Shown here: one piece after another, positions 2,424 through 22,723 of the stretch
How the letters are laid out: each line of letters opens with the position of its first letter
Numbering within the stretch: the stretch's first letter is position 1
Assembly (NCBI RefSeq): GCF_056746865.1
Contig: NZ_CM163382.1
Length of the DNA: 64,000 bases
Direction: 5' to 3' (one strand)
The notes under the pieces: generated by a model
What the model saw: only the letters and a program-made list of their open reading frames with translations
Database searches by the model: none
Told to the model about the DNA's origin: nothing
Program-made: the position numbers and the translations under genes

Positions 2424-5075
2424 TTAGCGACAGATTGCTGTCTGCTGGTTCAGTAAGGTACCAGGAGAAACTTCAGGAAGCTTGTACTCGACAATACAGT
2501 TTGAGTTTTTATCTTTGCCCCATGAAACCTGTAATTTCCCTGACTGTGGAAGTCCAGTCAGATAAACCTGACCGTTTTCCGCGACAATGCTGCCATTTTT
2601 ATTCTTTCCGTGAGTGACAATTGCACCGAATGGAACGCTCTTATTACCGTACTTCAACGTCATTAATACTTTCCCGCCGATTTGTGCATTAAATGTTGCT
2701 CTGGCAATAGCACCGTGAGTTGGGATGACAGTGACCACGGTTTCATCCAGTTCAACATTATCTGCAAGGGAATTCGCGTTAAGAGCGACACGATTTTCTC
2801 TATATTCTGTCGCAAATGGTAATATGGCATAGCCACGCCAGTCGGTATGAATACCGGTCTGGTTCTCTATTTTGACATTATCAGCGCCAGGAGCCTTAAC
2901 CAGAACCATTGTGTCGCCCAGCGGCTGTCCAAAGGTGATGCCATCAGCATGAGCAATAATGCCACCACTCATTCCGTAATAAATCTGGCTGCTGTCACCA
3001 CTCCGACTGTAACCGACATTCGTATTACCGTAAGCTCCACGATAATTAAGAGAACTGTAACCACTGGTGCCAGACGATGTATTACCCCCGTGGGTGTTAC
3101 CGACCTGAACACTATAATTCAGGTTATTATCCGGCAGCAGAGTGCCATAAACTCCCGATAGATTGGTCATGCCGCCTTTCAAATCGTTTGACATACTGTA
3201 ACTGGCGTTTGAATTACGAAATGCCGACTGACTGTCTGTACGCATCCAATGACTGAAGGGAACATTAAGCGTAAAAGCAAGTAAATGATCCCGATCGTTT
3301 TGCCATATATTATTGGAATAGCTGTAATTCAGCGAAGTCGTAATATCACCAAACGGCACATTTAATCCAAATGATATTTGCTGGTCGCTGCGTGACGTGT
3401 TCCAGTAACTTTGGCGACTGGCACTAAAAAATGTCGTACCGTAATTTCCAAGCTGCTGAGAGATGCTTATTTGTTCCTGACCACGCTTACTGTAGAACAG
3501 ATTAAAATAATCAATAAATTGTGTCTGCTCGTTGCTGTCTCCGGTAGGAGGCTTGACGGTGTAACCACTCATTCGACTGTAGGCACTGTCGGATAAGTTA
3601 TAAAAACCTTGCGTAGAATAGCGATATCCTGCGACCTGGATATTGGTTCCCGTCTGGTAGAAGGATTTGCTGTAGACGGATTTAATCGATTGCCCGCTGT
3701 GACGGGTGCCATCTGCAAGTGTCGTATTGGCCTGCGTGATATCGAAAGAAAAGGCACCAAAAAGTCCTAAATCTTTACCAATACCAAGGTTGAAGGCCTG
3801 ATAATCTTCTGCAATTTGCATTCCGCCATAAGGTGTCCAGTTTCCTTCCAGTCCATGCATCAAGCTACCTTGTATGAACTTGGGGGAGCTTTGCAGGTTA
3901 TTTCCACTACGATATTCCCCCATGGCAAGCGCATAACGCGTATATCCAGCACGTTGGAGAACCGGAACAGACGAATAAGGAACATATAATGTCTGAATAC
4001 TGCCGTCTGCCTCTTTTATGGTTACTTGCAGATCACCACCATTGGCCGCAGAGTTGATATCATCAATAGTAAAAGGGCCGGGTGGGACAGTAGTCTGATA
4101 AACATCGTATCCATTCTGTTTTACACTCACTTGTGCGGTGCCGCGGGCAATACCATGAATCACCGGAGCGAAACCATGTTGGCTATCGGGCAACATCGCT
4201 TCTGTTGAATTTATTTTGAGGCCACGAAAGTTCACACTATCAAAAATATCGCCATCGGTATAACTATCACCTACCGTTAAGCGTGAGCGTAAGGGAATAA
4301 TGTCACGTTCAGCCGACGTATTGATATGCTGCCATTTATTGCTGTCAGATGAATTGCTACTCCCACTGTTATAACTCCACGTTGAGTTATCGCGCAGTCG
4401 CCAACTACCAATGTTGATGCCACTCTGTAAATTCAAATATGCATAGTTGGATTTTCCTGCATTATGGTTACTACGATTATTAATAGAATTACCATTAAAA
4501 CTATAGTTTAGAAGCCCAGCATTTATTCCTTCTTCCCACAGATCAGGAGAAACATAGCCGCGAGCCATTCTGCCAACATAAATTTGCGGAACGGAGAGTG
4601 ACAGATGTTGCTGACCAACATCAAACTCAGTTGATGCGTCGGCCAAACGATCCTGAAGTGGTGTGCATGCGCTGTTGTCCGGCACATGTTTTTCTGCCGA
4701 ATGTTCTTTATTGTCTAATAACGCTGATTTTTTTATGCCAAGACTGACTAGAAGATCTGTACTCAGGCATGGGATGAGATCTGCGTTATTATCATCTGCA
4801 ATAAAAGTAATATCCCGACTAGTAATAAATTCGTCGTTCAAATAAATGTCGACCCGATATGTACCAGGTGGTGCCTCGCGTCCCTTAGTAAAGGCGGATA
4901 AATCGACAGATTCAGCAAGATCATTGCTTAAAAACCGTGGATTAAAATAATACTCTGCGTCAACGGGAAATACCGCAGTTGCTAAGCCAAGGGCAATGGT
5001 AAGCCGTGCAAAGCGAGGCAGTAGTAACACCTGATGCATACGATATGCCTTAAATGCGGCACGAAAGGCTGTCAT
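2424..5075 (-). CDS. ydeT: fimbrial outer-membrane usher (FimD/PapC family), apparently full length
   Basis: 883-aa ORF, Asn/Ser/Tyr/Gly-rich beta-barrel composition and usher length; follows chaperone gene; true start may be internal Met 13. Confidence 0.85.
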   Translation of the reverse strand: MTAFRAAFKAYRMHQVLLLPRFARLTIALGLATAVFPVDAEYYFNPRFLSNDLAESVDLSAFTKGREAPPGTYRVDIYLNDEFITSRDITFIADDNNADLIPCLSTDLLVSLGIKKSALLDNKEHSAEKHVPDNSACTPLQDRLADASTEFDVGQQHLSLSVPQIYVGRMARGYVSPDLWEEGINAGLLNYSFNGNSINNRSNHNAGKSNYAYLNLQSGINIGSWRLRDNSTWSYNSGSSNSSDSNKWQHINTSAERDIIPLRSRLTVGDSYTDGDIFDSVNFRGLKINSTEAMLPDSQHGFAPVIHGIARGTAQVSVKQNGYDVYQTTVPPGPFTIDDINSAANGGDLQVTIKEADGSIQTLYVPYSSVPVLQRAGYTRYALAMGEYRSGNNLQSSPKFIQGSLMHGLEGNWTPYGGMQIAEDYQAFNLGIGKDLGLFGAFSFDITQANTTLADGTRHSGQSIKSVYSKSFYQTGTNIQVAGYRYSTQGFYNLSDSAYSRMSGYTVKPPTGDSNEQTQFIDYFNLFYSKRGQEQISISQQLGNYGTTFFSASRQSYWNTSRSDQQISFGLNVPFGDITTSLNYSYSNNIWQNDRDHLLAFTLNVPFSHWMRTDSQSAFRNSNASYSMSNDLKGGMTNLSGVYGTLLPDNNLNYSVQVGNTHGGNTSSGTSGYSSLNYRGAYGNTNVGYSRSGDSSQIYYGMSGGIIAHADGITFGQPLGDTMVLVKAPGADNVKIENQTGIHTDWRGYAILPFATEYRENRVALNANSLADNVELDETVVTVIPTHGAIARATFNAQIGGKVLMTLKYGNKSVPFGAIVTHGKNKNGSIVAENGQVYLTGLPQSGKLQVSWGKDKNSNCIVEYKLPEVSPGTLLNQQTAICR

Positions 5076-8674: not shown

Positions 8675-9400
8675 TCAACGTTGCGGCTCCTGTTTGATTC
8701 CGCCTTTGTTACGAAGAAATACCGGTTTTACCGGGATTGCGTCCTTCCTGGCGCTCATATGCGCCGTTTGCCTGAGGTAATCCAGGAAGTGCAGCGTTTG
8801 TCGGTGCAGTTGATAATCCTCCTCACTGGCGTAAATCTCATAGAAATACCAGCGTTTTGGAGTCTCTGAATCTGTACCGGCATACATGGCTAACACGCCT
8901 TTCTCTACTTTGAGCGACTCGACCATTTCAGGAAGGACGATGTTTCTAAATTCGCTCTGAAATTCAGGCTTTACTTCGACGATCACCAGATTATTGATAG
9001 TTCGTTCATTCGGTATGATGTGTTTGTCGCCCAGAAACTGTGGCTCCAGGGTAATTTTCTTCTTACTGTCAATAATGTCAGGTGCACGAGCAGCGAATGC
9101 TTTGTATGGGGCGGCATTGAGATGTTTGCGATAAGCACGCTCATTTTCATAGAGTTCGAACATGAATGCCTGACCTGAATTGTCGCTGCGTTGCAGGGCA
9201 TACATCGCCAGTGTACCTGCTTCATGATCAACCGAAGCGGAAATCGTCTGTCTGGCCACGTCTGCAAAGTCGTTGTCCCGATCGGGTCTGATGCCGAGCT
9301 CGAAGATATTCATCTCCGGCTTATTCGGCGCGTCCGGTTTTGTTGCAAAGACAGGGCTGCTTATTAGCATGCAAATTAAAAGCATAAAAGTCTTTTTCAC
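8675..9400 (-). CDS. secreted protein with two ABM (antibiotic-biosynthesis-monooxygenase-like) domains
   Basis: 241-aa ORF with signal peptide (MKKTFMLLICMLISSPVFA); two ~100-aa repeats with ABM-like pattern (AMYALQRSD…FMFELYENE / AMYAGTDSE…YFYEIYASE). Confidence 0.5.
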   Translation of the reverse strand: MKKTFMLLICMLISSPVFATKPDAPNKPEMNIFELGIRPDRDNDFADVARQTISASVDHEAGTLAMYALQRSDNSGQAFMFELYENERAYRKHLNAAPYKAFAARAPDIIDSKKKITLEPQFLGDKHIIPNERTINNLVIVEVKPEFQSEFRNIVLPEMVESLKVEKGVLAMYAGTDSETPKRWYFYEIYASEEDYQLHRQTLHFLDYLRQTAHMSARKDAIPVKPVFLRNKGGIKQEPQR

Positions 9401-9515: not shown

Positions 9516-10535
9516 CTATCGCATCCAGACCTGCTTAACATCTTTCGTTTGCGGCGTATTTTGCGCCATGATCCCCGTCAGAACATGCGGCTGGTAGGTT
9601 TCTTCCAGAAACTGAATTTCCTCCGGACTTAGTTGAAGATTTACTGCGTTTACCGCGCCATCGACATGAGCTTTTTTTGTAGCCCCTACGACAGGTGATG
9701 TGACTTTTGTCAGCAGCCAAGCGAGAGATATTTCCGTCATTGACACCAGATGGCGTTCGGCCAGTTCGGCTACACGCTCAATAATGCTGCGATCCTGTTC
9801 AGCCGTGCTGTCATATTTTCCACGCGCATAGTCATCCTCTGTGGCTCGCCGTGTATAGCCTTCTTTACGAGAGAGGCGGCCGCTGGCCAGCGCGCTATAG
9901 GGGGTCATTGCGATATTATCCTCAGTGCACAGGCCGAAGAGCTCCCGTTCATCTTCGCGCATAATTAGATTGTAGTGGCTCTGTACGGAAACAAAGGGCG
10001 TCAGCCCTTCGCGTTCAGCAAGGGCGTTCGCCTTCGCCAGCTGCCAGGCATAGCAGTTTGAAATACCAACAGCTCGTACTTTGCCAGCAGTAACAGCGGT
10101 ATGTAACGCTTCAAGCACGTCGATAATGGGCGTGTTGTAATCCCAGATGTGGTAGATGTAGAGGTCGATATAGTCCATCCCCAGATTCTTCAGGCTCTGG
10201 TCAAGGGATTGAGCGATTGCCTCTTTTCCGCTGATCCCTCCGGCAATTTGTGCGGGGGTTCGCGGCAGAAACTTGGTGGCCAGGACGATATCATCGCGTT
10301 TCGCCATCTCCCGTAATGCCCGGCCAACGTATCGCTCACTGGAGCCATTCTGGTAGGCTATAGCGGTATCGTAAAAGTTGATGCCCTTTTCAAGGCCATA
10401 GCGAATGATGTCGCGGCTTGCTGTTTCGTCCAGCGTCCAGCTATGCTGACCCGTCGACGGATCGCCAAACCCCATGCATCCCATGCAGATGCGGGAAACA
10501 AGTAAGTCACTTTTACCGAGCCGGGTATACTGCAT
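9516..10535 (-). CDS. aldo-keto reductase family oxidoreductase
   Basis: 339-aa ORF; N-terminus MQYTRLGKSDLLVSRICMGCMGFG and overall pattern typical of AKRs (Tas/YajO-like). Confidence 0.8.
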   Translation of the reverse strand: MQYTRLGKSDLLVSRICMGCMGFGDPSTGQHSWTLDETASRDIIRYGLEKGINFYDTAIAYQNGSSERYVGRALREMAKRDDIVLATKFLPRTPAQIAGGISGKEAIAQSLDQSLKNLGMDYIDLYIYHIWDYNTPIIDVLEALHTAVTAGKVRAVGISNCYAWQLAKANALAEREGLTPFVSVQSHYNLIMREDERELFGLCTEDNIAMTPYSALASGRLSRKEGYTRRATEDDYARGKYDSTAEQDRSIIERVAELAERHLVSMTEISLAWLLTKVTSPVVGATKKAHVDGAVNAVNLQLSPEEIQFLEETYQPHVLTGIMAQNTPQTKDVKQVWMR

Positions 10536-10537
10536 TG

Positions 10538-11110
10538 TTATTCTCCCTCTGGATTATTCACGACGGAATTGAGCAGTTCGACAAGCCTTGAAGCGTGTTC
10601 CCGGGCAAGCGTTTTTTGCTGCGCGATTTTGTCGGCATCCCGGTCGGCATAGCTGATACCGCAGGTATAAACCGGCGCCAGCAGCTCAAGATTGCACAGC
10701 CTTGCCGTGGTTTCGAACGGAATAAGATACTCTTCAATGGTATGGCCAAAGAAACTGTCGACGGTATAGAGCTCCTCTGGCGCTCCCGTTGTAAAGGAGA
10801 GGATCAGCTTTTTACCGCCCAGTTTCGCCGTTGAGCCATGCGCGAAGCCGTGAACAAAGACCTCGTCCAGCCATTTTTTCATTAATCCTGGCAGCCCATA
10901 CCAGGAAAAAGGGAACTGCCAGACAATCACATCGGCCCTGAGCAGGCTTTCCTGCTCCGCCGCGATGTTGAATTTGCCATCCGGATAGAGCCTGTCCAGA
11001 CGACGAATCTCAACATCAGGAAGGGCGGTCTCCACTTCATCAAGAATAGTGGCATTGGCGACGGAATGGGTAAGCTCAGGATGACCTGAAATAACAAGGA
11101 TATTTTTCAT
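10538..11110 (-). CDS. flavodoxin-like NAD(P)H:quinone oxidoreductase family protein
   Basis: 190-aa ORF beginning MKNILVISGHP…, resembles Flavodoxin_2 / KefG / MdaB-type quinone reductases; 2-bp gap to upstream AKR gene. Confidence 0.65.
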   Translation of the reverse strand: MKNILVISGHPELTHSVANATILDEVETALPDVEIRRLDRLYPDGKFNIAAEQESLLRADVIVWQFPFSWYGLPGLMKKWLDEVFVHGFAHGSTAKLGGKKLILSFTTGAPEELYTVDSFFGHTIEEYLIPFETTARLCNLELLAPVYTCGISYADRDADKIAQQKTLAREHASRLVELLNSVVNNPEGE

Positions 11111-11260
11111 TTCAATCAGTTAAACATCTTTGGTGAATATTAAATCCAGTATAGAGTGACAACATTATTTTTTTAGAGCAGTAAAGGCTCATTCACTTTT
11201 AGGCAAAAACTAATAATTGTCGGCTGATCACAATGTGCTCAGTCATCATGAAACGGTGAA

Positions 11261-11938
11261 CTAAACCGTGATGCCCAGTAAACGTTCTGCATTGCGAAAC
11301 GCGATGGCCTCTTTTTCAGCCTTGTTGACGGGCAGACTGTCTATAAAGGTTTTTACACCGTCCAGGGTCTGATAGGGATAATCGACGGAGAACAGGATCC
11401 TTTCAGCACCCATTAACGCGTAGATAAACTGGAAGTGCGGCAGTGTTAGCATATGACGGGGTAACGTAAACGTGTTCCTGGAAGGTTCTCGTTAGCGTGC
11501 GTGACAGACCCGTTGCAGCCAGTGGCAGGCTGTCATCAAGACGCTGGAGCCAGAAGGGTAACATCTCACCCCAGTGGCCACTGATTACCTGCAAGTGGGG
11601 ATATTTATCAAATGCACCCGATAACATCAGCCGCAACAAATGGATCCCCGCTTCGTGATGCCAGCCCCAGGCAAACATAGAAAGCCTGGAGTTGACCTCT
11701 GCGCTGAAGCCCGTGAAGTAGGCCTGCTGTACGCTTTTAAGCGGTAACCCGGGATGAAGATAGAGTGGCACATTCAGTTTATTAAAGCGGGAAAGCAGGG
11801 AGTCGGTCAGGATTATGACCATCAGCGACGGTTTTCCCCCAGTCGCCAAGGAAAGGTGCCTGCTCAAGCGCAACAGGCATACACGCTCGCCCTAACTCGC
11901 TGTCGAGATAATTTTCTTCGAGGCAAATGATTTTCATA
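11261..11938 (-). pseudogene. amidohydrolase-family gene disrupted by at least two frameshifts
   Basis: Three consecutive reading frames carry pieces: MKIICLEENYL… (from ATG 11938), then …ISGHWGEMLPFWLQRLDDS…, then …FSVDYPYQTLDG…; metal-dependent amidohydrolase-like motifs but no single intact frame. Confidence 0.5.
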
Positions 11939-12039
11939 TTCTCACCATTCATACAAAGCAGTAAAAGTGATACAGATTAGAATCACCCGGAACAGCCCGT
12001 TCGTGTGTGTCATTCATGACAGTCTGTTCCGGACGGGCT

Positions 12040-12987
12040 TTACACCATCGGTTTTTCCCAGGCGCCTCGTGTATCCACTCTGGTCTCTGCGGCGAGTTGT
12101 TCCAGCAGGATGATTTCCTCATCGCGTAACTGGATGTCTGAAGCGCAGGCGGCGTCCAGAACGTGATGGACTTTAGTCGCACCAACGAGGGGAAGGGTAC
12201 CTTTCGCAATAGCCCATGCGATGGCTATCTGTGCCACGCTGGCATTCCTTTCGGCTCCCATTTTTTTCATGGCGGCGGTTAGTCTTTCTATCTGCGGCAG
12301 TACTGCGTTATAACTTTCGGCCCGGCCACTCCCGGCAGGCATGGGATGATTTGAATCATAACGACCACTGAGCGCGCCTTGCTCCAGGACCATGTAAGCA
12401 AAGAACGTGATGTTATTTTGTCGGCAATAATCAAGGATCCCGGCCTCTTCAGAAGCGCGATAGAGCAGGCTGTAGTGATTTTGTACTGCACTGAGGGAAT
12501 AACCGGAAGCGTTAAGGATTTCATTGGCGCGTCTGATTTGTGCCAGATTGTGGTTGGAAACACCTACGCGTTTTACCTTACCGCTTTGTAAAAGTGGGAT
12601 CAGTCCTGGTGTCCATTTTTCGACGTCGAGGGGATTATGGATCCAGTAGATATCAATCGCGTCCACGCCCAGGCGCCCAAGGCTGGCCTCAAGCATATCG
12701 CTGACAGGCTGCGCAGACTGCTTGTCCGCAATCTGCGGCGTGAATTTGGTGGATAAAATTATGTTCTCGCGGGGAAACTGACGGACTAATGCTCCCAGCG
12801 CAGTCTCGGAACTCCCCATACCATATACTGCTGCGGTATCCCAGAGATTGAGGCCCTTACTCATGGCCGCAGTGAACACTTCTGCCATCTGAGTATCAGA
12901 AAGATGATTACCAAAGACGGTGTCGCCGCCGGCAAAGCCTGTGCCCCAGGACCATGTACCTAGTGCGACTGGAGGTAGTGTTTTCAT
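12040..12987 (-). CDS. aldo-keto reductase family oxidoreductase (second copy)
   Basis: 315-aa ORF with AKR-like N-terminus and overall pattern. Confidence 0.75.
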   Translation of the reverse strand: MKTLPPVALGTWSWGTGFAGGDTVFGNHLSDTQMAEVFTAAMSKGLNLWDTAAVYGMGSSETALGALVRQFPRENIILSTKFTPQIADKQSAQPVSDMLEASLGRLGVDAIDIYWIHNPLDVEKWTPGLIPLLQSGKVKRVGVSNHNLAQIRRANEILNASGYSLSAVQNHYSLLYRASEEAGILDYCRQNNITFFAYMVLEQGALSGRYDSNHPMPAGSGRAESYNAVLPQIERLTAAMKKMGAERNASVAQIAIAWAIAKGTLPLVGATKVHHVLDAACASDIQLRDEEIILLEQLAAETRVDTRGAWEKPMV

Positions 12988-13060: not shown

Positions 13061-13762
13061 TTAAGCTGTCCGGCGGAGTGCATTTAACAGCGCCACACCA
13101 ACCCCATGTGCTGAAGCGGGATTCTGCCCCGTGATAAGGCGATCGTCGGTAACCACGTTTTCAGACCAGTTTGGAGCTTCATGATAAAGCGCACCATGCT
13201 CGCGAAGTGCGGTTTCAAGCAGGAAGGGAACCACATCTGTTGTGTGAACTTCTTCCTCTTCCTTGTTGGTAAAGGCCGCCACATTTTTCCCTTTTATCAG
13301 GTATTCGCCGCTACTGAGTTTTGCGTCAACCAATGCCGCAGGCCCGTGGCAGACGGCTGAGACAATCCCATCACTTTCATACACTTCGCGGATAATACGC
13401 TGGGCATCCTGATTATCACGGAAATCCCACATGGTCCCATGACCACCTGCAAAGAAAACTGCGCTGTAATCGGCACCTTTCAGCTCGGATAACGCAGGTG
13501 TTGTTGCCAGGCGCTGCTGAAAATCGGTTTCGTTCCAGTACCAGGCGTTAACAGGGTCGCTGAGGTCAAATCCATCCACCGGTGGCTGCCCCCCGCGAAT
13601 ACTGGCTATTGTTGTTTTTATTCCGGCATCTTCCAGTACTTTCAGCGGATGAGTCAGCTCGGCCAGGAAAAAACCGGTTGGTACACCGGATGCGCCTTTA
13701 ATCGGATGGCTGGAAACGACACATAGCACTGGTTTATATGCAGGTTTCATATCGGTCCTCAC
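13061..13762 (-). CDS. DJ-1/PfpI (class I glutamine-amidotransferase-like) family protein
   Basis: 233-aa ORF with nucleophile-elbow-like motif AVCHGP; GAGG RBS before ATG 13762; start overlaps upstream gene stop by 4 bp (ATGA). Confidence 0.65.
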   Translation of the reverse strand: MRTDMKPAYKPVLCVVSSHPIKGASGVPTGFFLAELTHPLKVLEDAGIKTTIASIRGGQPPVDGFDLSDPVNAWYWNETDFQQRLATTPALSELKGADYSAVFFAGGHGTMWDFRDNQDAQRIIREVYESDGIVSAVCHGPAALVDAKLSSGEYLIKGKNVAAFTNKEEEEVHTTDVVPFLLETALREHGALYHEAPNWSENVVTDDRLITGQNPASAHGVGVALLNALRRTA

Positions 13763-14070
13763 TCTTTATTTTTAAATTCATCGGCGAAGAGATTTTCCCA
13801 GTTAATAAAGGAGCCAAGCGGTATACACTCGAAGCTTAGTAAGCCTGCTTTTGCCAACGGGAATTCGGCCATAACGTTCATCGCTTCATCGACAGAGTCA
13901 CATTCAAGAAAAATAGCGACGCCAGGTCTGTCCTGACGGAAGTAGATGTCGCGGATGAAGCCTGATTTATACAATCCCCAGGCGTGCAGCGCTTCAGCGT
14001 TGAGGTGCGGAGCATATTTCTCCAGCGATGCTCCAGGGGCAGGGATATCCAGACATAAAATTCGCATCAT
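13759..14070 (-). CDS. small muconolactone-isomerase-like protein
   Basis: 103-aa ORF; resemblance to muconolactone isomerase pattern is weak and by eye only; first gene of the co-oriented cluster. Confidence 0.35.
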   Translation of the reverse strand: MMRILCLDIPAPGASLEKYAPHLNAEALHAWGLYKSGFIRDIYFRQDRPGVAIFLECDSVDEAMNVMAEFPLAKAGLLSFECIPLGSFINWENLFADEFKNKE

Positions 14071-14206
14071 AGTCTCCTGAACTCAGGTCGTAGTAGAAAG
14101 AGACTAAAGTATAAGAGGCGTATTTCAGGAAGATTAGAGGGTCATTGACTTAAGCATTTTTAGACTGTACTTAATAATCAGGCGAGAATTGCTTTAGGAA
14201 AACATT

Positions 14207-15106
14207 ATGAATAACGCTCTTTATAACCAGATTCGCATCTTCCAGAGCATTGCGCGGGAGGGCAATATTTCGGCAGCCGCAAGGAAACTGGAAATTACGC
14301 CTCCCTCCGTCAGCAATGCACTAAAGCTGCTGGAAGAGTATATCGGTCATCCGCTTTTTGTGCGTACGACCCGCCGTATAGAGCTGACGGAAACCGGTCA
14401 ATTATTGCTGGAACAGACCGCTGCGGCGGTGGAGTCGCTGGAAAACTCACTTGAAAGCATTCGCGACCAGCATCAGGAGCCCTCAGGGATGGTGCGAATT
14501 ACGCTCTCGCGTTTTGCCTACCTGTTAATTCTTAAGCCTGCGATGGCAGAATTCTGTCAGCAATATCCGGGTATACAGTTAGAAATTTCGGTCTACGACG
14601 GTACCGTGAATATCATCAAAGAGCGTTTTGATCTGGGGATCCGTTTTGGCGATATTCTTGAGGGAGGGGTGGTGGCCCGACCGTTAATGAAACCGTTTCG
14701 TGAAGGATTATATGCATCCTCAGCGTATCTCTCCCGACATGGAACGCCTGAAGTGCCGGCAGATCTCTGTCATCACCAGCTGATTGGTTACCGTTTTATC
14801 ACCAACAACCGCATCCTTCCGCTGCTCCTGAACGATCGCGGTGAGCAGTTGACCGTTGAGATGCCGGGGCAGTTAATCAGCAACGATATTGACGTTATGG
14901 CAGACGGGATCCGTAACGGGCTGGGAATTGGGCGCTTGTTTGAGCCTGTCTGGCAGTTACAGCCGGACAGGGAGCGCTTTATTCCGGTGATGGAGAGCTA
15001 CTGGAAAACCTACCCGCCAGTGTATCTCTATTACCCCAAAAACGCGGGTAAAACGAAAAGAGTGAAGGCCCTGATTGATTTTCTGATATCCACTACGGGG
15101 CGATAA
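14207..15106 (+). CDS. LysR-family transcriptional regulator, divergent from the cluster
   Basis: 299-aa ORF with N-terminal HTH (…ISAAARKLEITPPSVSNALKLLEEYIGHPLFVRTTRRIELTETG…) and LysR substrate-binding-domain length. Confidence 0.85.
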   Translation: MNNALYNQIRIFQSIAREGNISAAARKLEITPPSVSNALKLLEEYIGHPLFVRTTRRIELTETGQLLLEQTAAAVESLENSLESIRDQHQEPSGMVRITLSRFAYLLILKPAMAEFCQQYPGIQLEISVYDGTVNIIKERFDLGIRFGDILEGGVVARPLMKPFREGLYASSAYLSRHGTPEVPADLCHHQLIGYRFITNNRILPLLLNDRGEQLTVEMPGQLISNDIDVMADGIRNGLGIGRLFEPVWQLQPDRERFIPVMESYWKTYPPVYLYYPKNAGKTKRVKALIDFLISTTGR

Positions 15107-15503: not shown

Positions 15504-16826
15504 TTACTTAATACCGTATTCTCGGCTTAAGCGACGGTGCAACCTCAACACATTGGTTTCAACTGCCGTCACCACGTTCTCCGGAAAATCTGTCGGTAAT
15601 GAAGTCTTCACGTTATCCAGTGCTGCCGGAATCATTCTGGCAAAGTCACTCAGGATTTCATGCATCTGCACTTCCGGAAATTTCAGCACCTTTGCTGTCG
15701 CCAGAAAATGTCGCGGATAAATTTTATCGATTGCCGTTTTTTTGCCTTTGGATGCGTTAAGCCCCATTGCCAGTTTGAGATCGCTGATGTGTATTCCTGC
15801 GCCACCCAATACCGGAAATGCTGAAATGATGTCGTAAAATGGCGTGAGTCGATAACTGCCGCCAGCCTGAATAAATACGGAGAAGTTTTTTGCATGGCCA
15901 TCCGTTGCGCCAATCAACCACTGGAACACCTGAAACTTCATAAAATCATAGCGATCTTTCAGCGCCTCGCTGGACCCCATCAAAAAAGCCATGATCCGCG
16001 CGATGCCTGGGCCTCCATCTGATTCATATTTCACCGATGAAGGTAAACCGAATGTCTGACACATATCCTCCTGTGGCAAGCGAAGTAAAACCGTTCGCTC
16101 AGCATTCCAACGCCTGTCAAAACGTTCGACCGCTAACGCGCGCACATTTCCCGCTTTAATGATTTCTGCGTCCGGCACATTCAACCCAAGTTCTTTCGCC
16201 AGCAGCAGACAGTAATACTCATTATCAACGCTTTGGCTGAGATCGAGCGTCGCATTGGGCTGCCTGATTTCGCCAATCGGTAATTTAATGATGTGCGTCG
16301 TCGGCGTTATTCCTTTCGGAATGCACCAGTCATTGCCTATTCTGAGCAGCGCTGTCTTCTCCTGCGCGCCAGCAACCGAGATGCGAAAGTCATTTTCTTC
16401 TCTAATCATGCCCAGAGGGATATCTGCTTTATAAGCCGTTAATACTTCTTCAAGTCTGGCTTCAGTAAGCTTTTCCCATGCCATTATCGGATGCGTTACG
16501 GTTTCGTCTTCGGGTATTAACGTCACGGCACCAACGCTGTCTCGCCCTATTTCTGACAATAAATCAAACGGTTGTCTGGATTTGGCATGATAACGTTTAA
16601 CGATCCGGTCACGTACAATCGGGCTATCGGGTAACAGGTTATCGAAGAAGTTAAATACGGCATCAGAGGTGATATTCCCCCTCTGCAATGGCAGCGAAAG
16701 TGATAACGGTCTGGCATAACGGTTGGCTAACCACTCCGGTGCATACTTAAAGGTGTGCGCGCCATTGGCTAACTTCGTTAACTCGCCTACCCGCTGGTTG
16801 TTCATCCAAGTGACAAGTTTAGGCAT
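15504..16826 (-). CDS. hipA: HipA serine/threonine kinase toxin of the HipBA toxin-antitoxin module
   Basis: 440 aa from internal start MPKLVTWMNNQRVGEL (ORF track extends 19 codons further upstream); start overlaps hipB stop by 1 nt. Confidence 0.9.
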   Translation of the reverse strand: MPKLVTWMNNQRVGELTKLANGAHTFKYAPEWLANRYARPLSLSLPLQRGNITSDAVFNFFDNLLPDSPIVRDRIVKRYHAKSRQPFDLLSEIGRDSVGAVTLIPEDETVTHPIMAWEKLTEARLEEVLTAYKADIPLGMIREENDFRISVAGAQEKTALLRIGNDWCIPKGITPTTHIIKLPIGEIRQPNATLDLSQSVDNEYYCLLLAKELGLNVPDAEIIKAGNVRALAVERFDRRWNAERTVLLRLPQEDMCQTFGLPSSVKYESDGGPGIARIMAFLMGSSEALKDRYDFMKFQVFQWLIGATDGHAKNFSVFIQAGGSYRLTPFYDIISAFPVLGGAGIHISDLKLAMGLNASKGKKTAIDKIYPRHFLATAKVLKFPEVQMHEILSDFARMIPAALDNVKTSLPTDFPENVVTAVETNVLRLHRRLSREYGIK

Positions 16827-17092
16827 TACCACTCCAGATCTTGCTGTTCTGTTGATTCTGGCGAGGCATTTTTCGTGTCGCATAGCGTCATTGAGAGTTC
16901 AAGCGACTGTAAAATCTTAAAAAATGTCGTCAGCGTGGTATTGTCAGGATTGTTTTCGAAATTGGAAATTGTCGCCTGCTTAATACCGATTTTTTTCGCC
17001 AGCTCGCTCTGCGTCCAGCCATTTTGCTGACGAACCAGTTTCATTGCATTCGCTAATTGCGTTGGGCTATAGATCTTCTGAAAGCTCATCAT
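16826..17092 (-). CDS. hipB: HipB antitoxin / Xre-type repressor
   Basis: 88 aa from MMSFQKIYSPTQLANAMKLVRQQNGWTQSELAKKIG…; HTH motif; immediately upstream of hipA. Confidence 0.9.
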   Translation of the reverse strand: MMSFQKIYSPTQLANAMKLVRQQNGWTQSELAKKIGIKQATISNFENNPDNTTLTTFFKILQSLELSMTLCDTKNASPESTEQQDLEW

Positions 17093-17302: not shown

Positions 17303-20300
17303 TTACCAGCTATATTTCACACCCAGCATGCCCTGAGTATCGCTATAGCCTTTATCACCTAGTTGCACACCGACATTCCCCCACAGGCTAAGGTTGTTAT
17401 TTACTTTCGCCTCAACCCCGGTACGTACTTCACCGAGATTACGCGCACCATCACGGCTTACGGTTTGACCATTCATCTTCACGGCGTAGACTTTGCTGTT
17501 GTTGATCCAGTTCGCTTCAATGTAAGGCTGGAACTCACGCTGTTTACCATTGTCACGCTGGTGATGACTGTTCAGGTAGGTTTTCACCCCAAGTCGCGTT
17601 TGCACGTTTCCGTCACCTTCCGTTTCAATGCGTGTTCCGTCCTTCCGGATATGGTCAGAATCTTTCACACCCATCCAGGTGATTTGCACCTGTGGCTGGA
17701 CGTACCAGGTATTCAGCGTCCCTTCGCTGCCGCTAAATGTTCCCGCTTCAAAGGTATACCCACCCTCAACAGAGGCCGTCACACCGCGAGAATCATAGTC
17801 GTCAGCAGAACGGTTATCGGAACTGACGCTGTTATCAAACCAGTTATACAGCGCCCAGCTGTCAACATAAGCGCCGGTCTTATTCGCATCGTTCTGATAC
17901 CAGGTCGCGTAAATCCCAGCGCTGTACCCGCTGATGCGCCCATCCGATTTATAACCCACACGATTACTCTGAGTATTACTGTGCTGATTGGCATAGCCTG
18001 CCATGACGCCGAGATGCCAGCGATCCTGCGCGTTGCTACTCCACTGCGCCAAATCGCCGCCTAGCTGCAATACATAGCGGTTAGCCTGAGTATTTAGCTG
18101 ACCGTCACCGGCCCTTGAACGTTCGTGCCCTCCGACATGACGCATCCACATACTGCTTGCCGAACCCTGAGAATGCAGTGAATCTGTATACTGCGGCTCA
18201 CCCAGACGGTCGTGTAAACGATGGCTAAACAGCGAGTTGGCTGCGGCAATGTTGCTGATATAGCTTCCGGCCTCCGGGCGATAAACTGATGGGCCTTCCG
18301 GATCCACAACAGGAGGATTATTGATGGGATCGGGTGTATCCGCTGGCGTTACGCCGTCCCATTTACTGGTCAGATACCAGTTTTTCTCGTCATTCCCCTT
18401 CCCTTTAGCCAGCGTGTAGACGTAAGCCCCAGCTTCGACAGTTCCGGTGGTCAGCGCGAAGTTACCTGCAGAATTACCGCCGACCTCAATGAGTTCAATA
18501 CCGTTGACAGTTTGTGCACCGACGCCGCCAATGTTATCAACCCGAACGCGAGTATTCCCTTGGGTATCGCCTTTCACGTTCATCTTATCGGTGGGCGAAT
18601 TATCGCCGCCCAGCGTCGCGTTGAACGTCATCAGGCCATTGTTTCCGGTATAGTTACCGTTAACGGTCAGTACATTCCCCGGTTTTCCTCCTTCGCTGTT
18701 CATTTGAACCGTGCCACCATTCTCCAGGTTACCGCCGACAGTGGTTTTAGCGACACGCAGTGTCCCCCCTGGCATAACGTTCACATCACCTGCAGTGGTG
18801 ACATTTCCCGACATCACACCGCTGTTATGGATATTAATGTGTTGACTTGCCATATTAATGGCAGAGTCGGAACCGAAAGCAATTTCACCACCCACGATAT
18901 CCGTCGTACCCTGATACGCCGCGGAATCTTTGTTAAGAGTCAGGATCCCGGTCCCCAGTTTTGTCACATCACCGCTACCGCTGATACTGTGCGTCATCGC
19001 CCAGCTACGCTCAGTGGAGATGGTGAGCAGGCCATTATTGATAACGGAAGCATCACCCAGGTTTTTCTGCTCGTTGACGCTGAGCGCGCTGCCTGTATCA
19101 ATGTTGAATTGCCCCACAAAGCGGCTATTATCGCCATCCAGCTCTACATCTGTCCTGGCGGTTGCGCTCACGATACCCTTCCCGCTTATGCTATTACGCA
19201 GTTCGCCGGTCACATTTTTTAGCGTTAACAGACCGTCATTGGCAATATTTCCTCTGCCTAACCCCTGCGTATTATCGAGGCTGACTTCGGCATTTGGGCT
19301 AATGCTGGTTAACGCATTGTAGCGTGCATTAAGCCCCTCGATAGCCAGTGTTCCCCCTGTAACATTCAGGTTTCCGCCACCTGTCAGTTCGCCCTGACTG
19401 ATCCCACCTTTATTCACCGTCAGCGACCCCTCTTTAAACAAAACAGTCGAACCCATCAGCCCGGTGAATGTCTCTACCGTCTGGGCCGATCCATTAAGAT
19501 CGACGATGGCCGCGTTGCTGATGTTCAGTTCCCGAGTATTGCCCAGCGCGCCATCCGCATCGGTACGTAATGTCCCCATCTGAACGTAGGTTGCCCCCTG
19601 ATAGTCGTTCTGACCGTTAGAAAGCGAAACCTGTCGCACCGTATTGATTGCCAGATCCCCTTCACCACCGATTTTTGCCGACATATCGGCCGTTGCGCCA
19701 TAGGCTCCGCCATGTTCGGCTAACGTCAGCTTTTGCCCACCATGGATGTTCAGCGCTTTCAGCTCATAGTTAACGTACAAACCATCACCTGGTGCGGTCG
19801 TGAGGCGGAATCCATAATCACCCTCGGCGACCACTATTCCGTTTTGTGCAATGTGTAACGTTTTGTCCGCTTCCACCTCGTCGCCCTGTAAATCACGTAA
19901 CGTTAATGAGCCACCCGACCCAATAACCGTTTGCGCCTTCACCAGTTGAACGCCGACATGGCTATCATCGTGTTCCAGCAAATTGAGCGTCGTCAGAGGG
20001 TTATTCGCCATGGGATCATTCCACGGTTTAGGCACGTCGATAAGCACGTCGCCCGTCCCGTTTACCTGATAGTTACGGCCTTTCCAGGTGTAGTCACCCG
20101 CGCCGACAACCAGTGTATCGACGCTGATATATCCCTCCGCAAGCGTCGCAGCAGGTATATCCGTATCGAAAGTGAGCGTACCGCCATTCATGGCTAGTCC
20201 ACCAATGGATTGCTCTCCCACTTTTACCGATGTGGTATTTTCACTGTCAGACTGCAGCATCGCGTGAGTAAGCGCAGCGGTGTTGTCGCGTTCCAGTGCG

Positions 20301-22723
20301 AAGGTACTGTCTTTCAGTTGGGCAACACCGGCGAATTCAGTCCCTGCTGCATGGGTAAAGCCAAACATTTTGTCGGAGGATGACAGCTGCACTCGCATCA
20401 AGCCATCGCCTTTGAGCGCATTGGTCAGCGTGTAATCTCCCGCACTGTTCGTTGATGCGAGAATGTCGAGCGTACCGGGGCTTGCAATGGTTACTTCACT
20501 CGAACCCATGCCAGTTACCCCATCTGCCGTATGTGACGCAATGGTCAGGAGGCCGCCATTGACCAACGTTTTACCGCTATAAGTATTCCCTGCATTGAAC
20601 ACCGTATGGCCTGCATCATGCATCACTTTTCCGTCTTTATCGTCACCCGTAATCAGCATATCGACCTGGTAGCCGGCATCACTGTTATTGGTATGATTAA
20701 AGACAAAAACGCCTTCGCCAAGACCAAACTCCACTTTCGTCGCATTGGTGATAAATCCGGCATCTGCCGCCGCCTCACCGTGAGCAGCACCAATGTTTAG
20801 CGTTCCTACAGCAGGCGCAAAAACACCTAAGTAAACTTCTCCACCTTCGACATTCAGCGTACCGTTATTCGTCAGGGTTAACGTACCTGTGCCAGTCGTC
20901 CCTACGTTCATATTGAATGTTTCAAGAAGAGAGTTCTGCCCATCCACCCGCACGTCGCCCTTACTTTTGTCATTGAGAGCTATTTGTGTATCACGCGCTT
21001 TAACTATACCTCCGGTGGTAATATTCAGTTCACCCGCGCCTAATACACCGACCTGTAGTAATTGGGCGTTAGTAGATGATGTCTTTAAATTCCAGAGACT
21101 ATCCGTTGAAATATTAACTATCCCCTTACCGGAGGCATTTCCTCCGATAAATCCATAGCCCGTTGAATTAAGAGTGGCACCATTACTGACATTTACGATG
21201 CCGCTACCAAAATTACCGACATTGATACCTACAGTATCGAACGATGATGTCGCATCCATCAGGTTCAGTGTGCCGATACCGCTTGCTTTATCGCCCAAAA
21301 AAGTAATATTTTGCGATACGAACTTACCGCCATCGCTGATATTGAGGTTTCCGACACCCGCAACACCAATGGTGGTATAGACATTCTTATTGACCTCCCA
21401 CATCCCCCCCGTGGTGATGCTGACATTCCCGACGCCGGTTTCTCCATAACCGAGTGAGCTTCCTCCGTTGCTGACAACAAGCCCCTCATTACTGATATTC
21501 ATTTCGCCGTGGCCGTCATAACCAAGATTAGTTCCGAGATTAGTGATAACGGAGTTCTTATCCTTAATAGTAATGTTGCCTGTGCCTGTTTCTTTCATCC
21601 CCGCAGTGATAATTCCCGAATCTACTTTTCCTTCACTCGAGACATTAAGTTCACCGTCGCCAGCATCACCGATATAGATATAGCGGAAAGCTTCGCCCGT
21701 TCCGAGGAAATTCCAATGCCCTTTATCGGTCACGTTGACGACACCGTGGGACCCGTCCTGAACGCCCACAAATGAATATTCTTTGTTATTAATCAGTCCA
21801 TTATTGGAAATATTGACTTTGCCATTACCGAAATATCCATTATAGAGTCTGCGTACCGTGATAACAGAGTCTTGATCCTGCACATTCAGGGTTCCGATAC
21901 CGGTGGCATTGCCACCGATAATCGTATTTTCAGCCGTAATCAGCCCCCCCTCGCGAATAGTCGCTTCCCCCGTGCCTTGATTGCCAATTTGAAATTCAAT
22001 TGAGGAATCATTATTTTTTATTAGCCACTCGCCACCCTTTTCAACGACAACCTTACCATTGCTGTTCGCCTGATATCCTACAATGGCGACGATTGAACTC
22101 GTGACGTAACCCTTATCCGTAATATTTAATGAGCCTGTACCGTAACTCCCTATTTCGAATAATTCGGTCGTCAGAACCGAGTACTCTCCCTCAACATTGA
22201 CCGTCCCGACGCCTCCTGTCGAAGAACCTATCCTTAAATATCCTCCGTCAACGTGACCCTTCTGTTTAATATTCAGCGTCCCCGTACCGGATTGACCCAC
22301 ATTTAAAGGCCTTGCATTATTTCCGCTATCATACAATCGCCAGGTGCCACCCAAAACATTAACGGTACCCTCCGAGTCCTCATTAGCGCCAATGACGCTG
22401 GTAGTAATAGTGGTTAAGGAAGCATTACCGCCAGCCAAAATATTAAGCACTCCAGTGCCATACCACCCAACCAGGTAGGCATCGTAAGCAATATCAGTAT
22501 TAATATTGGTAATCTGACCATTATCAACTTCCAGACTCGCACCACACGCTGAACCGCTTAGTGCCAGCAAAACACCCAGCGTCAATCTACTGAATTTCGT
22601 TGTCAGTCCAGAGGATTTACGCAAATTAACCGTTGATGTTTTACCTACCCTGCGAGTTAATTCCGAGCAGGCCTGAAATACCTGTAGGGTGCAATTCCAT
22701 ATCACGCGATAGATTCTATTCAT
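17303..22723 (-). CDS. yneO: AIDA-I-type autotransporter adhesin, full length (K-12 counterpart is the yneO/ydeK pseudogene)
   Basis: 1806-aa ORF; extended signal peptide MNRIYRVIWNCTLQVF…; long Gly/Asn/Thr-rich repeat passenger; C-terminal beta-barrel-like region ending …GMLGVKYSW. Confidence 0.85.
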   Translation of the reverse strand: MNRIYRVIWNCTLQVFQACSELTRRVGKTSTVNLRKSSGLTTKFSRLTLGVLLALSGSACGASLEVDNGQITNINTDIAYDAYLVGWYGTGVLNILAGGNASLTTITTSVIGANEDSEGTVNVLGGTWRLYDSGNNARPLNVGQSGTGTLNIKQKGHVDGGYLRIGSSTGGVGTVNVEGEYSVLTTELFEIGSYGTGSLNITDKGYVTSSIVAIVGYQANSNGKVVVEKGGEWLIKNNDSSIEFQIGNQGTGEATIREGGLITAENTIIGGNATGIGTLNVQDQDSVITVRRLYNGYFGNGKVNISNNGLINNKEYSFVGVQDGSHGVVNVTDKGHWNFLGTGEAFRYIYIGDAGDGELNVSSEGKVDSGIITAGMKETGTGNITIKDKNSVITNLGTNLGYDGHGEMNISNEGLVVSNGGSSLGYGETGVGNVSITTGGMWEVNKNVYTTIGVAGVGNLNISDGGKFVSQNITFLGDKASGIGTLNLMDATSSFDTVGINVGNFGSGIVNVSNGATLNSTGYGFIGGNASGKGIVNISTDSLWNLKTSSTNAQLLQVGVLGAGELNITTGGIVKARDTQIALNDKSKGDVRVDGQNSLLETFNMNVGTTGTGTLTLTNNGTLNVEGGEVYLGVFAPAVGTLNIGAAHGEAAADAGFITNATKVEFGLGEGVFVFNHTNNSDAGYQVDMLITGDDKDGKVMHDAGHTVFNAGNTYSGKTLVNGGLLTIASHTADGVTGMGSSEVTIASPGTLDILASTNSAGDYTLTNALKGDGLMRVQLSSSDKMFGFTHAAGTEFAGVAQLKDSTFALERDNTAALTHAMLQSDSENTTSVKVGEQSIGGLAMNGGTLTFDTDIPAATLAEGYISVDTLVVGAGDYTWKGRNYQVNGTGDVLIDVPKPWNDPMANNPLTTLNLLEHDDSHVGVQLVKAQTVIGSGGSLTLRDLQGDEVEADKTLHIAQNGIVVAEGDYGFRLTTAPGDGLYVNYELKALNIHGGQKLTLAEHGGAYGATADMSAKIGGEGDLAINTVRQVSLSNGQNDYQGATYVQMGTLRTDADGALGNTRELNISNAAIVDLNGSAQTVETFTGLMGSTVLFKEGSLTVNKGGISQGELTGGGNLNVTGGTLAIEGLNARYNALTSISPNAEVSLDNTQGLGRGNIANDGLLTLKNVTGELRNSISGKGIVSATARTDVELDGDNSRFVGQFNIDTGSALSVNEQKNLGDASVINNGLLTISTERSWAMTHSISGSGDVTKLGTGILTLNKDSAAYQGTTDIVGGEIAFGSDSAINMASQHINIHNSGVMSGNVTTAGDVNVMPGGTLRVAKTTVGGNLENGGTVQMNSEGGKPGNVLTVNGNYTGNNGLMTFNATLGGDNSPTDKMNVKGDTQGNTRVRVDNIGGVGAQTVNGIELIEVGGNSAGNFALTTGTVEAGAYVYTLAKGKGNDEKNWYLTSKWDGVTPADTPDPINNPPVVDPEGPSVYRPEAGSYISNIAAANSLFSHRLHDRLGEPQYTDSLHSQGSASSMWMRHVGGHERSRAGDGQLNTQANRYVLQLGGDLAQWSSNAQDRWHLGVMAGYANQHSNTQSNRVGYKSDGRISGYSAGIYATWYQNDANKTGAYVDSWALYNWFDNSVSSDNRSADDYDSRGVTASVEGGYTFEAGTFSGSEGTLNTWYVQPQVQITWMGVKDSDHIRKDGTRIETEGDGNVQTRLGVKTYLNSHHQRDNGKQREFQPYIEANWINNSKVYAVKMNGQTVSRDGARNLGEVRTGVEAKVNNNLSLWGNVGVQLGDKGYSDTQGMLGVKYSW

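Follow-up and report, generated by a model that had tools for sequence, protein, structure and literature searches.

The spacer between a LysR-family regulator gene and a divergently oriented gene cluster of the detoxification type on an Escherichia coli chromosome is probably a canonical LysR-type transcriptional regulator (LTTR) divergent control region, built around a bipartite operator that recurs with its -10 hexamer at 11148-11217 inside the cluster, and through which the regulator would activate the cluster and repress its own gene (all coordinates refer to the window, that is, the whole 64,000-nucleotide stretch of DNA that was analyzed). The conserved element is 45 bp long, reads TTAG-N11-CTnAA-N6-TTAG-N7-CTAAnAAT, and occupies positions 14134-14178. 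The first-pass annotation of this DNA had already proposed a divergent LysR-type control region here, with one site serving both directions, and that placement stands, whereas the specific elements on which it relied, a different dyad and a -35 hexamer, could not be upheld. The regulon is uncharacterized but canonical, and its regulation, being of the textbook kind, will not surprise a specialist. What the analysis yields is a precise 45-bp operator in two copies and a predicted regulon for a LysR regulator that is without a literature: in the literature library searched, no study of the locus turned up under its gene content, the motif strings, or the RefSeq accessions.

The 4.2 kb around the spacer were found in 487 of 5426 complete E. 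coli genomes, so that about 9% of them carry the regulator, which is also present in many other Enterobacterales, including sampled Klebsiella pneumoniae, Serratia, Pantoea, and Yersinia genomes. In E. coli the locus is an accessory island that sits between hipBA and a fimbrial operon. Downstream of lysR are hipA and hipB (15504-16883) and the gene for an 1806 amino acid ECSE_1600-family autotransporter (17303-22723), and these genes mark the chromosomal insertion site of the island. The domain matches identify the product of the regulator gene as a genuine LTTR, with HTH_1 at the N-terminus (PF00126, E 6.9e-22, residues 7-65) and LysR_substrate at the C-terminus (PF03466, E 2e-26, residues 89-294), and the gene is oriented divergently from the cluster. 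The features of the locus are collected in Table 1.

Table 1. Genes, predicted promoter elements, and operator boxes in the window
Feature	Position	Strand	Remarks
LysR-family regulator gene (lysR)	14207..15106	+	299 aa; RefSeq WP_001057776.1
lysR Shine-Dalgarno	14197-14200	+	AGGA
Candidate lysR -10	14173..14178	+	AATAAT, best candidate; inside right arm of box B
TTGACT	14145..14150	+	lies around right half-site of box A; 22 bp from AATAAT
Box B, proposed recognition binding site (RBS)	14156..14178		dyad A.T.TTAG-N7-CTAA.AAT
Box A, proposed activation binding site (ABS)	14134..14153		TTAG (14134-14137)-N11-CTTAA (14149-14153)
Predicted cluster promoter -10	14113..14108	-	TATACT; fixed distance from operator
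p103 Shine-Dalgarno	14078..14073	-	AGGAGA
First cluster gene (p103)	13759..14067	-	102 aa; start at second ATG, 14067..14065
DJ-1/PfpI family gene	13061..13762	-	RefSeq start 13750
First aldo/keto reductase gene	12040..12987	-	
Second operator	11173..11217		TTAGAGCAGTAAAGGCTCATTCACTTTTAGGCAAAAACTAATAAT; same orientation as first; ahead of Flavodoxin_2 gene
Predicted internal promoter -10	11153..11148	-	TATACT; predicted start near 11141
NAD(P)H-dependent oxidoreductase (Flavodoxin_2) gene	10538..11110	-	proposed target of second operator
Second aldo/keto reductase gene	9516-10535		after Flavodoxin_2 gene
ABM-domain protein gene	8675-9400		after second aldo/keto reductase gene

The first cluster gene, p103, most likely starts at its second ATG, and the spacer therefore runs from 14068 to 14206 and measures 139 nt, a correction to the 136 bp (14071-14206) originally assigned to it. 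RefSeq annotates the gene from this second ATG (14067), and the first ATG is replaced by ATA in the orthologous loci L002 and L008 and is missing in L009. The 102 amino acid product has no family in Pfam or NCBIfam and could be placed only through structure prediction. The predicted structure (pLDDT 89.7) has a fold resembling that of muconolactone isomerase, ClcF, and TftG (YCII; Foldseek E about 3e-5, TM 0.68), and there is a weak profile match to TftG, a hydroquinone dehydrochlorinase (E 0.026). In other genomes the p103 gene usually adjoins a DJ-1/PfpI gene. Between the first aldo/keto reductase gene and the second operator lies a broken gene of the Amidohydrolase_2 family (11261-11952), shortened and split into short open reading frames of 63, 156, and 56 amino acids, the orthologue of which is whole (344 amino acids) in locus L004, at 707-1741. 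A gene for a CMD-family protein is also part of the cluster, with the ABM-domain gene.

Of the two halves of the operator, box B is the better dyad. Its core at 14160-14174, TTAGACTGTACTTAA, has the form TTAG-N7-TTAA, with one mismatch to the family consensus TTAG-N7-CTAA, and it contains the T-N11-A arrangement (T14161...A14173) that is expected of an LTTR recognition-site dyad. Box A is weaker and less symmetric, and the two TTAG words are offset by exactly 26 bp, that of box A being the upstream one. On the minus strand, TATACT is the only hexamer of the spacer that matches TATAAT in at least five of six positions and has both A2 and T6, and the corresponding -35 position (14136..14131) reads TAATCT, a match of only two in six. 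From this conserved -10 the transcription start of the cluster is predicted near 14101, which would put the center of box B (14167) at about -66 and that of box A (about 14143) at about -42, overlapping the -35 position of the cluster promoter; at the second operator the corresponding values are -65 and -41.5. An LTTR typically covers 50 to 60 bp, comprising an RBS that contains T-N11-A and an ABS near the -35 (PMC2724274), and given the predicted starts, the boxes would have the textbook recognition-site and activation-site geometry. The pairing of a good -10 with a poor -35, for which the best match averages 2.67 of six over 45 operators, suggests that the target promoters depend on an activator.

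The operator was traced through 63 loci gathered by a scan of one genome per species that was seeded with the LysR protein alignment only. The regulator forms an orthologue family with 75 to 95% identity across Enterobacterales and about 50 to 66% identity in Pasteurellaceae, Neisseriaceae, and others, in which true orthologues score 550 to 660 bits. The gene that is divergent from lysR varies over these loci, being that of the 102 amino acid protein, the Flavodoxin_2 protein, either aldo/keto reductase, or the ABM protein, and it is always drawn from the gene repertoire present in the window. Whichever of p103, Flavodoxin_2, aldo/keto reductase, or ABM comes first on the opposite strand, the operator is retained. 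The common layout is AGTATA, the reverse of the minus-strand -10, followed after about 20 nt by TTAG-N11-CTnAA-N6-TTAG-N7-CTAA(T/C)AAT; the offset of 26 bp from TTAG to TTAG holds in every lineage examined in Enterobacterales, Pasteurellaceae, and Neisseriaceae, and the minus-strand -10, whose offset relative to the box B TTAG is -52, is only ever TATACT or TATAAT, regardless of the gene that follows.

The bipartite pattern was present in 44 of 57 upstream regions and in 29 of the 42 that are non-redundant, against a background of 0.004 per 150 nt elsewhere in the loci (0.028 per 150 nt for box B alone at up to one mismatch), although shared ancestry among related sequences inflates the counts for close relatives. 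When every dyad made of 4-nt arms 0 to 20 nt apart was enumerated with no prior assumption, TTAG-N7-CTAA ranked first, being exact in 18 of the 42 non-redundant regions, where the maximum for any dyad in the shuffled sets was 6. Several columns that played no part in site selection are conserved as well: CT.AA at 14149-14153 (C14149, T14150, A14152, A14153), A14156, AAT at 14176-14178, and AGTATA at 14108-14113. The columns that flank the operator carry no information. At the thresholds used, the pattern was missing from 13 of the 42 non-redundant regions, among them those of most of the more distant orthologues (48 to 66% identity) and of three closer ones, L021, L026, and L031 (77 to 87%). 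Within E. coli, the spacer varies too little to be of use (identity of 99% or more in 457 of 458 genomes), the only variants being a T to A change at 14124 and the loss of one T from the TTT at 14193-14195, both of which fall outside the operator and the -10 hexamers.

The second operator lies ahead of the Flavodoxin_2 gene. With up to three mismatches allowed over the 19 specified positions, the full 45-nt pattern matches only 11173-11217 and 14134-14178 in the 64 kb of the window, where 0.01 matches are expected, and the sole exact TTAG-N7-CTAA in the window (11199-11213) falls within the second operator. Box B by itself shows no enrichment in the 64 kb (nine matches at up to one mismatch, with 18.9 expected), and only the full bipartite pattern is therefore specific in the window. 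The copying of operator and -10 together (11148-11217) implies that a regulated promoter also exists within the cluster. The Flavodoxin_2 gene has this same satellite operator with it in at least 11 other loci (L002-L005, L007, L008, L012, L013, L015, L025, and L026), and in genomes in which the gene directly adjoins lysR, its operator subtype is the one that is shared. Because the boxes are duplicated and travel with the target genes, there is strong evidence that they are the operator of a regulator and do not reflect neutral shared ancestry.

The same evidence bears on whether the boxes might belong to a different regulator, such as the core-genome LTTRs GcvA or OxyR. Both have sites of a related kind: in the gcvA-gcvB spacer of E. 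coli, GcvA has two 15-bp inverted repeats, centered at -65 and -43 from the target start, with the core motif CTAAT in the form ATTAG-N5-CTAAT, and OxyR, whose sites in the divergent oxyR-oxyS pair of regulator and target are at -66, -44, and -35 and which represses its own gene, recognizes ATAG-N7-CTAT (PMC5002191). The GcvA sites share the CTAAT half-site with the operator described here, and their positions are almost those that we predict (-66 and -42), but in them TTAG and CTAA are 2 bp closer together (N5 instead of N7). The OxyR motif has the identical 15-bp geometry of 4-nt arm, 7-nt gap, and 4-nt arm found in box B, but its arm is ATAG and not TTAG, and its half-sites are regularly spaced, unlike box A with its 11-nt gap. 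Moreover, the loci were gathered by the LysR protein alone, and the motif follows LysR over three bacterial families and onto satellite target genes, and the island, accessory as it is in E. coli, has its own regulator. It is thus very improbable that the boxes are bound by GcvA, OxyR, or another such regulator in place of the adjacent LysR. The adjacent regulator was itself rejected as a member of the GcvA subfamily (PRK11139; 107 bits, NCBIfam cut-off 288), and it is not close to OxyR in the NCBIfam and phmmer comparisons.

Among characterized systems, the closest analogue is CrgA-mdaB of Neisseria meningitidis (PDB 3HHG), in which, as here, an LTTR gene is divergent from a gene of the NAD(P)H quinone-oxidoreductase type. 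CrgA is octameric and has two adjacent T-N11-A sites, with the motifs 15 bp apart, within a 63-bp footprint (about 60 bp) in the spacer; it represses itself and activates the divergent mdaB, and its inducer is an electrophilic lactone (PMC2724274). The printed sequence of the CrgA footprint does not contain TTAG-N7-CTAA, unlike the present operator (PMC2724274), and orthology to CrgA was rejected (phmmer E 5.2e-28, 101.5 bits; 3mz1 scores higher). Neisseria has a separate orthologue of the present LysR, with about 52% identity and a TTAG/CTAA operator. Regulators of the E. coli YafC and CrgA-like LTTR subgroup share the domain layout of the present LysR and differ from it in genomic context and targets; among the NCBIfam models, that of YafC fits the regulator best, at 162.8 bits, and the YafC equivalog assignment (NF040888) was rejected, the score being far below the cut-off of 470.

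A different account of the spacer is the one originally given, in which the LysR site is TTAAG-N15-CTTAA (14150-14174) and the TTGACT that overlaps it is the -35 of lysR. Both sequences are in place, with the arms of the dyad at 14150-14154 and 14170-14174, and in the single sequence they are no more than chance would provide. The 136-nt interval to which they were assigned (GC 0.37) holds four perfect inverted repeats with 5-nt arms and spacers of 0 to 25 nt, where 5000 dinucleotide-preserving shuffles of the interval gave a mean of 4.1 and at least four repeats in 53% of cases, and it holds one hexamer with at least five of six matches to TTGACA, where 1.18 are expected. In the comparison of loci, the core of the dyad, TTAA-N17-TTAA, does rank third in the dyad enumeration (seven of 42 regions, null mean 0.55), yet only nine of the 57 upstream regions, every one of them from a close relative, have the exact TTAAG-N15-CTTAA, and its span of 25 bp is inconsistent with a T-N11-A geometry. 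What it pairs are the right half-sites of the two boxes, and its likeness to an inverted repeat is due solely to CTTAAG being self-complementary in the lineage of the window; in other lineages the right half-site of box A, which is the left arm of this dyad, is CTCAA, CTCAT, or CTAAA, and there the pairing is gone and TTAG-N7-CTAA, the dyad that is conserved, is retained. A repeat that looks plausible in a single sequence can thus be a wrong pairing of real half-sites. The first-pass reading also missed the minus-strand TATACT and the second operator.

The case for TTGACT is somewhat different. It is found in 21 of 57 upstream regions and is confined to one operator subtype, which always flanks lysR and in which it is always retained; it persists even in three loci that have lost either the divergent -10 or the first TTAG (L017, L031, and L035), and this leaves room for a role in the expression of lysR. 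The first-pass annotation had itself found no convincing -10 to go with it, and a sigma-70 promoter scan of 13900-14400, which returned no sites, and inspection of the hexamers bear this out: those that lie 16 to 19 bp after TTGACT (GTACTT, TACTTA, ACTTAA, and CTTAAT) each lack A2 or T6, and at the 16 to 18 bp of a consensus sigma-70 promoter no hexamer combines the two. The conserved AATAAT is 22 bp away, and because there is no -10 at a working distance, TTGACT as the -35 of lysR is unproven. Taking dyad and hexamer together, we consider this account of the spacer unlikely.

On the side of the bipartite operator, AATAAT is the best aligned plus-strand -10 over 22 non-redundant Enterobacterales regions (mean 4.82 of six, with A2 and T6 in 95%), and TTAAGC (14150-14155), a match of three in six, would be its -35 at a spacing of 17 bp. 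TAATAAT is equally conserved in operators that do not adjoin lysR, and for that reason it is first of all a part of the operator. The location of a candidate lysR -10 within the operator suggests autorepression, since box B covers the hexamer and the occupancy that serves activation would also repress lysR. In the Pasteurellaceae and Neisseriaceae loci L044, L046, L048, L051, and L054 (around 3984-4003), the right arm of box B abuts the lysR start codon (CTAACAATG or CTAACGATG), and the lysR promoter must therefore be upstream of the box or within it there. Tandem or partial operators are found near lysR in L017 (3855-3975), L027 (3860-4000), and L031 (3795-3975), where a Flavodoxin_2-type operator precedes a remnant in which TTGACT and box B are retained, and these natural rearrangements could separate an autoregulatory function from an activating one.

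In the mechanism that we propose, a tetramer of the adjacent LysR would occupy the 45-bp operator with box B as its recognition site and box A as its activation site, the latter lying over the absent -35, and the effector-bound regulator would recruit or reposition RNA polymerase at the -35-less promoters with predicted starts at about 14101 and about 11141. Because the cluster promoter has a good -10 and no -35, it would be expected to fire only with effector-bound regulator. Occupancy of box B would at the same time limit transcription of lysR, and through the second operator with its -10 the regulator would have a promoter inside the cluster from which to control the NAD(P)H-oxidoreductase part. 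What the sequences show is the elements themselves, with their conservation, fixed spacing, and duplication; binding by the adjacent LysR, autorepression, and the nature of the effector are inferred, and likewise activation rather than repression, because the target promoters have a good -10 and a poor -35 and the position of box A agrees.

As to the effector, the content of the cluster (MLI/YCII-like, DJ-1/PfpI, two aldo/keto reductases, the Flavodoxin_2 protein of the quinone-reductase type, ABM, and CMD) suggests that the signal sensed is a quinone, a reactive carbonyl, or an electrophile. Residue Cys117 of LysR (codon 14555-14557) is unchanged in 17 orthologues whose identity reaches as low as 58%, and may be a thiol sensor for electrophiles. 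A broader and more tentative reading, which we put forward as a possibility and not as the expected outcome, is that LysR and the TTAG/CTAA operator constitute an undescribed, horizontally mobile detoxification regulon for quinones, reactive carbonyls, or electrophiles, common to Enterobacterales, Pasteurellaceae, and Neisseriaceae, in which promoter-operator cassettes, each made up of the -10 and the two boxes at their fixed spacing, would travel with individual target genes and be swapped in before lysR, and an electrophile would be sensed via Cys117.

It might also be argued that control of the cluster is mainly post-transcriptional, with a hairpin in the 5'-UTR, formed by TAGTCTC (14070-14076) and GAGACTA (14100-14106), that would mask both the start codon and the Shine-Dalgarno sequence of p103. 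The 7-nt inverted repeat is perfect, L008 and L009/L029 show seemingly compensatory changes on both sides, other lineages have different complementary pairs at this place, and the minimum free energy structure pairs the Shine-Dalgarno sequence in most of the sequences if the 5' arm is transcribed. However, relative to the start that the conserved -10 predicts, this arm spans -5 to +2, and most of it would therefore be outside the RNA; when folding begins at the predicted +1 the hairpin is gone (mean z +0.38), and adding the arm still brings the mean z to no more than -0.72. An Rfam scan of 13800-14500 at E values up to 1 gave no match. The hairpin could coexist with the operator, and it leaves the conserved boxes unexplained. 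We regard mainly post-transcriptional control as a very improbable alternative to the operator-based control proposed above. A terminator-like site inside the p103 coding region, returned by a scan of 13900-14400, was judged to be irrelevant.

A 1136-nt contig (L020, JAIJJM010000909.1) labeled 'MAG: Collinsella sp.' encodes p103 and LysR products that are 100% identical to those of the window (tblastn), and the 150 nt upstream of its lysR differ from the window in one base, the T to A change at 14124. Because the contig is filed under an actinobacterial metagenome bin, it is probably a case of bin contamination.
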